64,000 nucleotides of DNA from a virus: the IMG/VR virus record IMGVR_UViG_3300050821_001689, positions 5,958 through 69,957 of that record. One strand, written 5' to 3'. Positions within the stretch are counted from its first letter, which is position 1, and every line of letters starts with the position of its first letter. A program made the position numbers. Of this stretch, positions 24,001-51,000 are shown in pieces.

Positions 24001-27000
24001 CAAGTGTTGGCGACTTGCGCCTAGCCTGCTACCGTCCTGAAGTGATGGAGAAGATATTTCTACAGCGGTTTTACCAGCTTACTTAGCTGGAGCCGCAGGC
24101 GAATGCTGACTGAGAGCTAGAGCCCCCTGTGCAGCCGCTGCTAGACCGGCTACGACTGGCTGGAACTTCAGGGGCACAAGGCCCCCATAGGCGTTGAATA
24201 GTTGTAGACCGATGCCTAGAACTTGAAGAAGGCCGTGGAAAAATTTAGACATTGTTATCTCCCAAGGGCAAACATTACTCGCCCTTTGAATTCTTGTAGG
24301 TCAGCAGACTTAACTGGAGCCGAAGCTACCTGTGGGGCTGCTGGAGCCGGTGCTCCAAAATTTGCTAACGCTGCATTGATAGCTACCTGGAAAGCTACGA
24401 TATAAAGCTGAACCTGCTTCTGTGCGTTAGGATTCAAGACACGTAGGGCGGCTAGCTCATTAGGGTCAGCTAGGCCAGTCGAGAAGGCATTGAGACATGC
24501 CACTAACTTAGCCTTGGCGTTCCCTGATGCATTGGCACAGACACCAAACTGGCTATTGAGAGCTAGACCAAACTTAAGATAATGGTCAACCGCATCCCCC
24601 TCAGCCTTCGAGAAGCTACCTGCCGCTTCAAGAGCCGGAAGGTCTGCTTCCGCCACCGAGACTACTCCATTGATTACTCTGCTCACGGTCGCCGCGGTTG
24701 CCTGGGCGTTACATCCGGTTAGGCTGAACACCAGGACCAACGACGCCAATACTGATAGAAGTTTCTTCATGTAATTCTCCTTGAGATTCCATTATACCAC
24801 TACTGATAATGTGGTAGCCGCCCCATGACTTGCAGGGCATAGTTGGGGTTCCCGCCGCCGTTCCATGCCTGAAGACCAAGAGTCACGTCTCCCTTGTTCT
24901 TAGCCAACTTCCCAGCGAATACCTTACATCCCAACGTAACCCCTTGATTCGGGTCACACAGTCCCGAGAGGAACTGTCCCGAGTACCCGTTCTCCCTGGC
25001 GACCTGGCCCATTACTTGCATCAGGCCCCAGGAGAACGACCTGGCGAAGGCTTCGGTAGCGGAGATTTTATTGTTGGTGTACAAAGGAGCTATGTACTTA
25101 GCCATGAACTCCGGCTCATAGCGAATCGCCCAAGGATTCCATCCCGACTCCTGTTCGATGATGGCACACACCAGCGCAGGGTCGAGGGAGTGGTCCTTGG
25201 CAATAGAGATAGCAAGTTGGACAGTCATGTCCAGCATGGTTAGTTTCCTGCACAGACGAAGGAAATGACATCAGTGATAGTCGCCGGACCAGTGATAGTG
25301 AAACTGGAGCCGGAGACATTGGCTACTTTTAGAAGGTTATTCGCCGCGTTGGTTTCGTCTGTCACGTTGCAATCATAACTAGTCGTCGAGGTAAATGCCG
25401 GAGAGAGACCAGTCACAGTAACCGTCGAAGGCGTCCCGGATACCAACGGAGCACTTCCTAATACTACCTGAGATGCCGTGAGGGCCGTATGGGAACAAGT
25501 TGAGGTAGTCCCGCAGAACTGTACCTGTGGATGGTTGGATACTACTAAGTTAGCTACCGGAGTAGTAGAAGCTATGGACAACGGAGCCGTTCCGGTAGAG
25601 AGTGAGGACACAATTTGTTGAGTGAACGTGTTGGTTCCGGTAAAAGTCTGGGTCCCATTGAGAACTGCTCCCGGACCAAAGTTCTGTCCCTGGCCGAACA
25701 GCACGAACACGAAAGCAACGGAGAGAATAGTGGCTAGTAGTATCTTACGCATTACTGAATTCTCCTGATACGTGCGATGATACCTACGTTGTTGGTGAGG
25801 GAGTTGAGTAACGCCCGAAGGAAGGCTCCTCCAGTCGGAATTAAATCATTATGAGCGAAGTTGTTCGCGTTGACTGCGGCGATGGTATACGCTGCTTGAG
25901 CAGGAGTTATGTACCCGTTAGGGTTTCCTCCCGGCCCTTCCAAATCAGCTTCTTGCATCTGAAAACTGAAGGCCCCCGGAGCCCCGTCGAAGAAAATTTC
26001 AATACTAAATGCACCTGGGTTCTCCCCACGTCCGGGAGGCATGGAGACGGCAATGGAAGCGATGGGAACCTGAGCCTGGAAGAGTTCAGCTTGGGTAATG
26101 ACTAGATTTCCCCCGCCACCGGTATCATTAATTTGGTTGGAGTTCCCACCATGTAAGTTCACATCGAGCGGCTGGGCGGTGAGAGTGGTAGCTGATGGGA
26201 CAGTGAGAATTTCATAGTGTCCATCAAATCGAGTCCCCAATACCGACCCAACGCCCTTAGCTTCAAACTGGAACCCTGGGATGGCGTGATGCGCGGCAGC
26301 GGTTGTGAAGGTCACCACTCCGTTAGTTCTTACCGCTCCACCGGCAGACGCGGCAAGTGCTACGCTGGCTTGGATGCCGAACAGTAGAGCCGTGTCACCC
26401 GGTTGGAGAGCGAGGTTAAAGTTTTGTGAAGCATACTTAGACATGTGTCACCGTTCCCATTTTACACTACTTTTTCTTCCTGGCCGTTCTAGCTATGTCC
26501 TGGTCAACTTGCGACCGGCCACGGATGCGTTCTTGTGTTGCTTGTAGGTCTCCAGGAGCGAGACCAGCATCTTGACGGATATCAGCTAGTTCCTGCGGAT
26601 TAGGTTCTGGGATACCTAGCTGTTCAGGAAGAAGACCCTCTTCCTCTTCCGGGGGATTCCCACGTTGAATTACGTTAGATTGAGGACCTTCCTTAGCTGG
26701 CATGGCTGGGGCGGCCTTCACTTCATCCGGGAGACTAGCTCTCTCACTGGCAGCGTCCTTACCTAAGTCAGCCGGTACAGCATGGTCGTCCTGTGGGAAG
26801 AAATGGCTCTCAGCAGTCATGGCAGCTTTCTCGCCGTCCGTAATTGGGCCAGCATCCACCACATTCACCGGAGCCCCTTCACGAGAAGCAGCGACGGGAG
26901 ATTGATGACCCTTAACTGGAGAATATGACCCGTCTGGATTCTGACGAGCCACAATAGTAGCGTCCTCCCCCTGTTGAATCTTCCCTTGTTTAGCCTGAAC

Positions 27001-48000: not shown

Positions 48001-51000
48001 GAGTCGGATTCCGCCCTCAACTAGTGTAGGTGTGTTTGTCATTAGCTGACAGGTTGAACGGGGACATAACCCCATACTTTTGCGTGGATAGCTCCGGCAC
48101 CCGGAGTACCGCCAGCCGCAGTGAATACTACCGCTGCTAGGGTCGTCTCCGCAGCTAAGTTTACGATGGCCGAGGCAGTTTCAAAGCCACGGGCCGTCGA
48201 ACCCGCAGTCAAGCCGGTATCGGTGGTTACGAATGCCGCAGTCGAACCGACAATACCAAGGTTCCAAGAGGTAGCCACGGTAATAGTCGTATTCACGCGA
48301 GCAGAAGCACCCTCCACAATAAAGTGCGAAGGGAGTTTCACGGTAGATGTGGTGGTTACTCCCGAAGTGGAAAGAGTTACGTTCCCAAGGTCCACAGCAA
48401 AGTATACCAAGCCTCCGCCGTTGTTCTGCGCATCGAGAATTGCTTCCTCAATACCGAAATCGCCGGAAGAAACGAAGGTTCCGTTACCGTGAGCGTTGGC
48501 GAAGGTCGCCGTGACCTGGCAAACACCCTGGTTAGGGTTGAGTGGTTGACATCCCGATACGGCGGATGGCGTTACCACCTCTGCGTTGGAACCAAAGTCC
48601 ACCTGAAGCGGAACGTTGGTGCTGAAAGGAACGAATGGTCGGCCATCTGGGAGAGTTACGTACCCATAAAGCATCGACATCGTTTGGGAGCCGGTTCCAG
48701 TAAAACCAATGGCGACAGTAGAACTCCATTGGTTATAGGCCGAAGCAAAGTACGTACCGCTTGGTCCATTTACACGAGCCGGTCCCTGTTGAGCCTTAGC
48801 TGGCGTAGCTAGGGTAAGCCCCATCACTACAAGAGCAAAGGTTGCGAGAATTGCGAGAAGTTTACGAGTCATTGTTTCGATTCTCCTGAAATTTGGTGCG
48901 GGCAGATTCCGTTAGATTGTTGTATATCCCGTAGGTATAGCAAGCTGGTCGATGTAACCAACCGCTCCCGGATTGTCGATGAAGAACTGACCGAACCAGT
49001 AGACATAGAACAACGTAGCCGCTAGAGGCGAACCAGTCGTCGAGTCGATAGGACGGGTGAAGTAGGAACCGTCTTCGTTCTTGAGGAAGTCGATAGGAGC
49101 GGACTCCACCTTACCCCAAGTATCGAAGTTCACGAAGTCGATACGGTCACGGGCGGCCTGGATGTCTTCCATCGCATTCACGCCTGCGAGCTTCGTGTCT
49201 CCAAAGAGCATGTCAATGGACTCATTGCCGGAACCCTTGTGGATTTCGGTCACGAGAATTGCCAACTCTTCGTAAGCAGCACGCTGCGCCGGGTGAAGGT
49301 GAGCAGCAAGTTGCTTCGGGTTCACGGCGTTCACACGCTGCTTAATTTTGTTGAGAATTAAGCGAATCGGGGCCGTGGTTAGGGCGTTCTGTCCGTTGTG
49401 AACCGCGTTGGCGCGGATTTCAGGAACAGATGCACGGGAAAGGTTGAGCCAGGTTCCGGCTGCGGAATCGGAGTGGTGGTAAGGAAGACCGAAGTATCCT
49501 GCCGGAGAAGCCCCAGCAACACCTTCGATTAGAATTACGTCACCCGAAGTTACGACGAAGCCGATTTGTCCGGTTAGGTTAATTACGTTGTTCGGATAGT
49601 CAACCGAGGCTACGGTCACCTGACCACGCTGAGTGGTGATGGTGGTGTCGTAGATGTTGAGAATCTGACCGGCGCGGATTAACTGGGAGAAGAAAGGAGC
49701 TACGGCAACGGTGAGGGAGGCATCCGTTGCAAGCTGACCCTGGGAAGTGGTGGCAATTACGTTGTTCCCGGCAGTCTGGAGTTGACCGTTCCAGAAAACA
49801 CGGAATTCTCTCATAGCGTTCTTAATTTCTAGCGCGATGAGCTTACGAATAGCCTTCGATTCCCCGTTAGTCTGGTCGAGCGCATCCTTGTTGATTTCAA
49901 TAGCGATACGTGCGGCTAGAGGAGTGAGGGTTGCTGCATCGTAGTGCGTTGCGGTACCACGACCGAGAGCGCCACCAGCTAAGTTAACCTGACCGGTACG
50001 TGCTCCTGGACGAATCTGCAACGGGATACGCGAAGCACGAGAGGAAACTTTGAGAACGTCCCGGCGCGTATCAATTTTGGAGAAGAGGGAGTCTGGATAT
50101 CCAAAAAGCTCAGGTAGTTTATCGCGTACCTGTTCTAACTGGAGACCAATGACATCCGAGGTTGCTTGTGCCATTTAGATACACCAAAGGTGTGAAATGC
50201 GGTGGCTTGAGGTCGAGTCAAGGACTCTGATTCAAGTTAATCAATGCCTAGTGTACGTCGGGAAAACTGCTCGTAAGTCTCACCAGAATTTGGTTTCGAT
50301 GACTGGCGTTCACCGGGTTTACTGAGGCGACCAGGAGTTCCCGAGGTTGCAGGCTCGCGGTGTTGAGTACCCGCTTGAGTACGCGCCGCGTTCGTTTTTT
50401 GCACTAGAGTTATCCCGGCTTCCCGAAGAACCTCTTGGAGGGCATCGGGAAGAAACTGTCTCGCACGCTGTTCGAGCGCAGCGACTAGTTGCCGCTGATG
50501 CTCCGGGCCGCGATTACCCGAGCGAGACATGGCTTCCATCTGGTTGGCAAAAAACGAGTCGTTTCTCACAGCGTCGATTGTCCGCTGCTTGATACTTTCT
50601 CTCACCCAGTTTTGGAAGCCGGGTTTCTGGGACTTCAAAGCCGTAGCGTTTTCTAGGCGCTTGGCAATATCGGTGTCAAGACTTCCGTGGAAGGTTGACT
50701 GGATTCCATTATAGAAGTTCTGTTCGGCCTGTGCAAGGGTAGACTGCTGGCCGGACTTTAATTGAGCATCCAGTTCAGCTACCTTCTGAGCAAGGTATTG
50801 TTCCCGCTCGCTCATAGTGCCTGGGGCTGCGGGTCCACCTGCGCCAGTTGGCTTAGGGAAACTTACTCCCTTAAGAGGAATGCCAAACATAGCAGCTACG
50901 GCTTGGACCGCCACCATAGCTTGTTTACCGTTGAGGCCAAGGTCCGAGAAGGCACGGGAGATAGCCGGGTCACCCTGTTGGACTCGGGTGGCGATATTGG

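Follow-up and report, generated by a model that had tools for sequence, protein, structure and literature searches.

By textbook, tailed phages assemble their particles wholly in the cytoplasm. Why, then, should genes of a phage virion module encode proteins with export signals, and what could become of such proteins? The question is raised by IMG/VR virus record IMGVR_UViG_3300050821_001689, of which positions 5,958 to 69,957 were analysed (the window: the whole stretch of 64,000 bases, taken from a contig of 69,957 bases). The minus-strand late arm of the window (24255-60483) holds the genes encoding the terminase large subunit (TerL), the major capsid protein and an endolysin, together with six genes that an earlier reading of the DNA (the original prediction) had credited with Sec signal peptides. 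It had proposed that the encoded fibres and decoration proteins are exported and mature in the periplasm by formation of disulfides and pyroglutamate, and that they are either added to particles when the cell lyses or exposed on the host.

Leader calls were made with a purpose-written rule-based predictor. A call needed three features, namely a positively charged n-region, a hydrophobic run free of charges, and small residues at both -3 and -1; Gln at +1 earned no credit. Among the 28 open reading frames (ORFs) of the minus-strand arm it picked exactly the six genes named in the original prediction plus a lipoprotein gene (24255-24770), whereas the scaffold-position protein and the internal proteins had no leader. 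Over the whole window 10 of the 80 called genes were flagged, 7 of them in the late arm. The six genes, all on the minus strand, were translated (a hyphen marks the predicted cleavage site). The 276-residue protein encoded after the capsid gene (48042..48872) begins MTRKLLAILATFALVVMGLTLATPAKA-QQ, its signal peptide being residues 1-27 (48792-48872), and the 1932-residue fibre or tailspike-like protein (40701..46499) begins MRRWLLLLPLLLFLLPSQAQG-QV, with residues 1-21 (46437-46499) as the signal peptide. A 241-residue Thr/Ser/Ala-rich protein (39976..40701) starts with MKRILLILALLLCASPTFA-T (signal peptide residues 1-19) and a 724-residue protein (37802..39976) with MLQRLILLILLYPCLLQA-QV (residues 1-18). 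The 120-residue collagen-repeat protein (37421..37783) starts with MKKAILAFVTTLFLLLTIAWFAKA-QT (residues 1-24) and the 170-residue mini-fibre-like protein (25240..25752) with MRKILLATILSVAFVFVLFG-QG (residues 1-20). The predicted sites, AKA-QQ, AQG-QV, TFA-T, LQA-QV, AKA-QT and LFG-QG, place Gln at +1 in five of the six. Translation and predictor thus agree with the original prediction and confirm that six late proteins start with what are, by rule, canonical Sec/signal peptidase I signal peptides. They agree also on the absence of a leader from the capsid protein and from the proteins labelled portal, adaptor and nozzle, although these last three labels are themselves unconfirmed.

Could the leaders be an annotation artefact, the true starts lying downstream and the proteins being ordinary cytoplasmic virion parts? 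The 724-residue gene gives this explanation its footing. Met37 could also serve as its start, being preceded by a good ribosome-binding site (AGGTAGGA), and a public gene call (P0191, 688 residues) begins the protein there, dropping the signal peptide. However, the relatives P0225, P0339 and P0249 align from query residue 3-10 on, which counts against the Met37 start. The fibre, 241-residue and 170-residue genes have no second Met in the first 80 residues, and the upstream starts either follow Shine-Dalgarno-like motifs of the AGGAG, AGGA or AAGGTG type or share an ATGA with the stop codon of the gene before, as the ATG of the 241-residue gene does with the fibre stop codon. These ATGA overlaps also indicate that the leader genes belong to the late operon. 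Moreover, the leader features are preserved in well over a hundred relatives of 30-70% identity. An artefact of annotation is therefore very improbable. True starts beyond the hydrophobic segments, the weak point that the original prediction had itself named, would find no Met in the first 80 residues of the fibre, 241-residue and 170-residue genes, whereas the 724-residue protein may start at Met37. The public call for 37802-39976 also illustrates how automatic annotation can hide leaders.

The relatives show how far the leaders are retained. For the 276-residue family, 143 unique mature sequences were assembled from 80 database relatives and the copies encoded in 80 IMG/VR loci. The rule found a leader in 104, with Gln at +1 in 72 of them. 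It called none in the other 39, but a leader is visible by eye in at least four of these (L008_5, P0028, P0032 and P0035); in the alignment the other leaderless relatives begin 1-10 residues ahead of the first conserved motif, F/Y-A-x-x-Y-A-Y-G, indicating that the leader is an add-on to a shared fold. Two loci, L046 and L070, each encode one leader-bearing and one leaderless copy. For the fibre N-terminus (first 460 residues) a leader was called in 18 of 25 relatives; five of the seven missed by rule show by eye a hydrophobic run ending A-Q after a long or uncharged n-region, and two (P0096 and P0104) lack such a run. The +1 Gln of the fibre (Q22) is an invariant column in a 14-row alignment (A3). 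In the 170-residue family the rule gave a leader in 30 of 53 relatives, several of the others being fragments, and the mature Cys count is 4 in 22 of the 30. A 115-residue collagen-protein relative in L147 (VHA-QT, 2 Cys) is encoded after the fibre cluster, and leader-bearing relatives of the 724-residue protein are found in L151 and L157. Across these families the leader persists as a feature although its sequence diverges. These data support the view that the leaders are real and under selection, as far as conservation can indicate.

Leaders may be real and yet remain uncleaved. The hydrophobic N-termini could be signal anchors that keep the proteins fixed to the inner membrane on its outer side. 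The fibres would later be released, or picked up there by particles, in the manner of signal-arrest-release (SAR) endolysins. The long h-regions of the collagen protein (19 residues) and of the 276-residue protein (18 residues) fit this idea, which would also account for an encounter of particle and fibre at the membrane. However, a short polar c-region ends each of the six leaders, with small residues in positions -3 and -1. In relatives, Gln occurs at +1 often or without exception, which indicates cleavage at that bond. SAR domains are also rich in Gly, Ala and Ser, whereas the window leaders are Leu-rich. We consider retention as signal anchors improbable, though less so than misplaced starts, and take cleavage by signal peptidase I as the preferred reading of the leaders.

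If the proteins are exported, their mature parts would be expected to bear marks of an oxidising compartment, and the distribution of Cys residues is consistent with this. The mature leader proteins have 59 Cys in 3634 residues, compared with 53 in 8011 residues for the other late-arm proteins, and the capsid, scaffold-position, internal and adaptor-sized proteins have none. The 28 Cys of the fibre fall into 14 neighbour pairs, with 3-44 residues within a pair and 47-236 between pairs; none of 20000 permutations gave so small a within-pair sum (p < 1/20000). The 20 Cys of the 724-residue protein are also paired (permutation p 0.005), and a single pair is present in each of the 276-residue and collagen proteins (residues 43 and 53 in the latter). 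Pairing of the four Cys of the 170-residue protein was not significant by permutation. In the 276-residue family the number of Cys residues follows the leader. With a leader, the count is even and non-zero in 99 of 104 members, odd in 5 and zero in none, whereas among the 39 members without a leader by rule it is even in 13, odd in 17 and zero in 9. This tie between leader and even Cys count is the strongest single argument for folding in an oxidising compartment. The motif of general O-glycosylation in Bacteroidota, D-(S/T)-(A/I/L/V/M/T), was also counted in the leader proteins and showed no excess (10 occurrences versus 11.0 expected from shuffles).

Which host would process such precursors? 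A scan of one genome per species (185,579 species) with the alignment of the 276-residue protein matched 10 loci. Eight are in Acidobacteriota metagenome-assembled genomes (MAGs), namely Angelobacter, Bryobacterales, Terracidiphilus (two), Sulfotelmatobacter and Acidobacteriaceae (three). The remaining two are in a Gemmatimonadaceae MAG and an Elusimicrobia MAG, and none is in Bacteroidota. One locus lies mid-way in an 823-kb Acidobacteriaceae contig (L089 / G001:C17, about 424-444 kb) and has split portal-like and capsid genes, indicating a decayed prophage of this phage group; it encodes a 565-residue leader-bearing relative of the 276-residue protein (CYA-QS). When 401 genomes of the phylum of G001 were searched for relatives of the 276-residue protein only G001 matched, so integrated copies are rare in that sample. 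A Bacteroidota host, first drawn from the Gln rule, was set aside when the genome scan gave Acidobacteriota MAGs, and the Gln rule alone does not indicate Bacteroidota. Judged from these matches, a soil bacterium of the Acidobacteriota is the most likely host, more so than a member of the Bacteroidota. We infer this host rather than assign it, because MAG binning can misplace phage contigs and the relatives are only about 40% identical.

The related-host MAGs encode enzymes that the proposed maturation would use. Plant-type glutaminyl cyclase (PF05096) was found in all three acidobacterial MAGs examined (E 1e-92 to 1e-97), compared with 3 of 14 well-known genomes in a control set. VKOR, a membrane enzyme that regenerates the periplasmic disulfide oxidant, was found in two of the three; DsbB was not found in the three. 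With lipoproteins and membrane proteins removed, each of the three MAG samples had Gln as its most frequent +1 residue (G001-G003: L097-L116, L122-L141, L163-L182; L142-L144), at 17/56, 5/10 and 2/6, or 24/72 in total by a crude rule. An earlier run with a looser predictor had given 16/65 in the MAGs and 4/33 in E. coli. The Gln at +1 of the window leaders thus fits a pyroglutamate-making host, as far as gene content can tell. In the Bacteroidetes the Q-rule gives a mean of 71% Gln at +1, most Chlorobi are below 9%, and a continuum is found elsewhere (PMC5837995); Acidobacteria are not mentioned in the text of that paper that was searched. The Gln-at-+1 habit of Bacteroidetes may reach Acidobacteriota and their phages. 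Taken together, the conserved leaders, the glutaminyl cyclase in three of three MAGs, the paired Cys residues and VKOR in two of three support the original prediction in part, on the side of export with periplasmic maturation and by indirect evidence throughout. We infer translocation, cleavage and disulfide formation, and consider export and oxidative folding of the leader proteins well supported by sequence.

Do the leader proteins then join the particle? They could instead be exported as free late accessory proteins that never do so. Possible roles are those of a lyase-like enzyme and adhesins that loosen the host exopolysaccharide or envelope before release, or of receptor masking, so that progeny avoid sticking to debris or to already infected cells. 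The giant protein gave no Pfam match at E up to 5 and no useful match by sequence among solved structures. From residue 37 on, the giant protein is homologous to the leaderless 1096-residue fibre of a 44-kb phage (L146; E 3e-51, 31% identity, 724 columns); this homology with a phage fibre over the first 700 residues argues against a free accessory protein. The L146 fibre lacks the Cys-bounded loop found in the first domain of the window fibre. Leader-bearing homologs of 1787-1874 residues are encoded in six related loci (L145, L147, L148 and L154-156, the last three near-identical, giving four distinct phages), and in each the homolog is the sole fibre-sized gene and has the usual fibre position. 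The gene order there is capsid, small proteins, a 967-986-residue homolog of the window protein 32776-35553, Cys-free proteins of 308-471 residues, and fibre. In five of the six loci more large proteins come after the fibre, their leaders being called by rule or found from a later start. In T7 gene order this position is the gp17 slot. Leaderless fibre relatives, matched in the central region, occur in six more loci (L146, L152, L153 and L158-160); L157 and L161 fall clearly into neither group. Homology and tail-module position in relatives thus identify the 1932-residue protein as a predicted phage tail fibre or tailspike. GGTG-type repeats were seen in it by eye, and a feature score of about 0.8 against beta-helix and P22-type spike clusters is a lead only. 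Like the proteins of the T7 gp17 position and the P22-type spikes, it is large, late and, in relatives, at the end of the tail module. It differs from leaderless fibres and tailspikes in its Sec signal peptide with +1 Gln and in the Cys-bounded loop, and from known ones in having no Pfam family and no solved structure by sequence.

The 276-residue protein gives evidence on both sides. Its AlphaFold2 model (pLDDT 89.3) starts with a leader helix (residues 3-18) and a disordered linker, followed by a beta-barrel (42-143) and then a jellyroll (151-276). The jellyroll comes closest in structure to 8gtc_S, a baseplate-tail protein of a siphophage (Z 9.4), and five phage cement proteins score Z 7.2-8.2 at 13-22% identity (among them 7eel_H, 8.2; 3j4u_H, 7.9; 8h89_J, 7.5; 7dou_4, 7.2), while the barrel resembles domains of tail-tip proteins (8vjh_B, Z 8.6), all of these being in a Z range that is common with this tool. 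Family members range from 190 to 626 residues, with a conserved N-terminal and a variable C-terminal half, as is usual in binders anchored to the virion. Within that common Z range, the C-terminal domain resembles in fold the cement or decoration proteins of BPP-1 (3j4u_H), Pam1 (7eel_H), GP4 (8h89_J) and KHP40 (7dou_4), and in the window phage the gene comes after the capsid gene, as for a cement protein. The 276-residue protein differs from these in its signal peptide, its extra N-terminal barrel and its disulfide-type Cys pair. The gene adjoins the capsid gene only in the window, L001/L003 and L022; in most of the 80 loci it lies between TerL and the portal gene, as an inserted accessory gene would. 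This arrangement is seen in relatives of about 45 kb within L003-L082. The original prediction of a decoration protein is weakly supported, having the cement-like jellyroll (Z 7-9, a common range) in its favour and the position away from the capsid gene in most relatives against it.

The 724-residue protein lends weight to an accessory role. Its AlphaFold2 model (pLDDT 80.1) is a Kelch-type beta-propeller followed by a lyase-like jellyroll. Foldseek related the propeller to TYW4, MKLN1 and AA5 oxidases; for the C-terminal domain it gave an alginate lyase of family PL14 (5gmt_A, TMt 0.57) and a glucuronan lyase of family PL20 (2zzj, TMt 0.52). The family is large (2333 relatives at E<=0.001), and among the best 150 many resemble bacterial lipoproteins or secreted proteins, with signal peptidase I or lipoprotein-type leaders by eye, and all have Cys. 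However, proteins of 1600-2900 residues also have the propeller module as their C-terminal tip. Leaderless small tail proteins of the window (25752-26444 and 32054-32776) are receptor-binding candidates, and if one of them is the real receptor binder the particle may not need the exported proteins. On balance we judge it unlikely, although a serious alternative, that all of the leader proteins stay free of the particle; incorporation of the fibre is preferred in what follows.

The explanation that we prefer has three steps: export, periplasmic folding and late attachment. The giant fibre, the three proteins encoded after it, the small fibre-like protein encoded before the endolysin and the 276-residue protein would be made as Sec/signal peptidase I precursors. 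These would cross the inner membrane, and cleavage would leave an N-terminal Gln for closure by host glutaminyl cyclase. The exported proteins would then fold in the periplasm with disulfide bonds. As the capsid and tail would be built in the cytoplasm, the exported parts could meet the particle only at holin opening or after lysis, as the last assembly step. In classical systems (P22 tailspike, T4 fibres) addition of the fibre or spike is the last step and is spontaneous, which makes attachment after holin opening plausible. Attachment itself is speculative, and we give the three-step explanation as a whole an even chance of being right.

Several observations weigh against this explanation, in addition to the Met37 start, the usual location of the 276-residue gene and the leaderless receptor-binding candidates given above. 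The predictor is crude, as the leaders that it overlooked in the 276-residue family demonstrate, and its versions disagree on the 170-residue protein, the later and looser one cleaving at SVA-F rather than LFG-Q; the relative P0141, which aligns as VSA-QQQNFG, supports LFG-Q. The mature 241-residue protein has only one Cys. Although the L146 fibre lacks a leader, it contains 12 Cys, some aligned to pairs of the window fibre, so paired Cys residues are not leader-dependent in the fibre family. The +1 Gln frequency in the MAGs (24/72) did not differ significantly from that in 250 kb of E. coli K-12 (2/15; Fisher p 0.21). Finally, the capsid protein, 276-residue protein, fibre and 724-residue protein had no match in 50,697 GenBank phage records, and there is thus no cultured relative to rely on.

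Because the 276-residue and fibre families mix leader-bearing and leaderless members, lineages may move between two routes of assembly. In general form, some tailed phages would build their particles in two compartments, the head and tail in the cytoplasm and the fibres, with disulfides and a pyroglutamate cap, in the periplasm, the parts being joined at holin opening; lineages would switch by gaining or losing the leader together with Cys pairs. We regard this general form as tentative and somewhat less probable than the explanation for the window phage.

The closest described cases are cellular fibres of Bdellovibrio and signal-peptide genes in phages of Porphyromonas. The MAT fibres of Bdellovibrio bacteriovorus are phage-like fibre proteins with a signal peptide that are exported and encoded by cellular genes (PMC10769870). 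As in the window proteins, a signal peptide precedes a conserved beta-rich domain, and the proteins act outside the cytoplasm. They differ in that they are cellular genes whose products are displayed on the predator cell, whereas the window genes are in a phage late operon. Many MAT fibres end in an S74 chaperone-protease domain (PMC10769870), and none was found in the window proteins by Pfam. Phages of Porphyromonas gingivalis carry five function-unassigned Q-rule signal-peptide genes, read as host-modifying (PMC10367356). These too are phage-encoded and have host-type signal peptides that expose Gln, but they are not fibre-like virion-module proteins, and their host belongs to the Bacteroidota rather than, as is probable here, to the Acidobacteriota. 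A search of the full-text literature, with subscription journals outside its scope, found no description of exported tail fibres in tailed phages. The window phage contributes a host context in the Acidobacteriota, leaders gained and lost within two protein families and, in the 276-residue family, the coupling of leader and Cys parity. If fibres are routinely exported, fibre attachment would be a lysis-coupled step, and disulfides and blocked N-termini would be possible, hardening the fibres for soil. Gene callers that trim leaders, and host-range predictors, would mis-model the receptor-binding proteins, and engineered phages or recombinant fibres of such lineages would need periplasmic expression.

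The remaining features place the leader genes in their genome. The first and last 97 bases of the contig are identical, indicating a complete circular assembly, and the contig represents a complete soil phage genome of short-tailed type that is probably virulent. No integrase was matched in the 38 proteins scanned (PHROGs on 38, Pfam on 25), and the genome has further genes. The plus-strand arm encodes a DNA polymerase (phrog_17, E 3e-45). Among the virion and packaging genes, family support is limited to TerL (58261..59895, minus strand; phrog_979, E 8e-48) and the major capsid protein (48912..50174, minus strand; phrog_14242, E 5e-8); TerL, like the capsid protein, has no leader. The putative portal (51703-54177), adaptor (36465-37184) and nozzle (32776-35553) genes, all on the minus strand, are labelled from size, gene order and conservation in relatives. 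The putative tail proteins had no Pfam match at E up to 5, nor had the 241-residue, 724-residue and 170-residue proteins, and solved structures searched by sequence yielded no useful match for the 925-residue protein or the portal-sized protein. The collagen-repeat protein matched PF01391 (E 6e-7) and PHROG tail-fibre families, and the 170-residue protein, with a four-Cys C-terminal domain, looks like a short fibre shaft with a four-Cys knob.

Next to the 170-residue gene, on the minus strand, is the endolysin gene, encoding a predicted lytic transglycosylase without a signal peptide (24800..25237; PF01464 SLT, E 1.6e-12), and adjoining it the gene of the 171-residue lipoprotein (24255..24770, minus strand; lipobox LTG-C). 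This predicted seventh exported protein was absent from the original prediction and had no Pfam or PHROG match. In spite of the lipobox it does not look like a usual spanin, being 171 residues long and lacking both a hydrophobic segment at the C-terminus and an embedded partner. A search of the late arm for a holin identified none; a 71-residue two-helix membrane protein encoded at 8675-8890 on the plus strand is a candidate. Between the 276-residue gene and the fibre gene are two minus-strand genes (46503-47363 and 47392-48075) encoding charged leaderless proteins with 5 and 6 Cys, one of which has a CxxC...CxxxxC zinc-ribbon-like motif; in relatives, Cys-rich proteins of similar size come after the capsid gene. 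An endonuclease VII gene (35550-35969, minus strand; PF02945, E 3e-17) is embedded in the tail module, flanked by the adaptor-sized and nozzle-sized genes. Finally, the plus-strand array of 30 tRNA genes (17973-21721) is broken by a 141-residue ORF (20004-20429, plus strand) that has 5 Cys and begins like a signal peptide, MKKAICTLAMLLTMSAVADA-K; a leader-bearing relative of this ORF, 40% identical, lies directly upstream of the fibre homolog in a 125-kb phage locus (L153).

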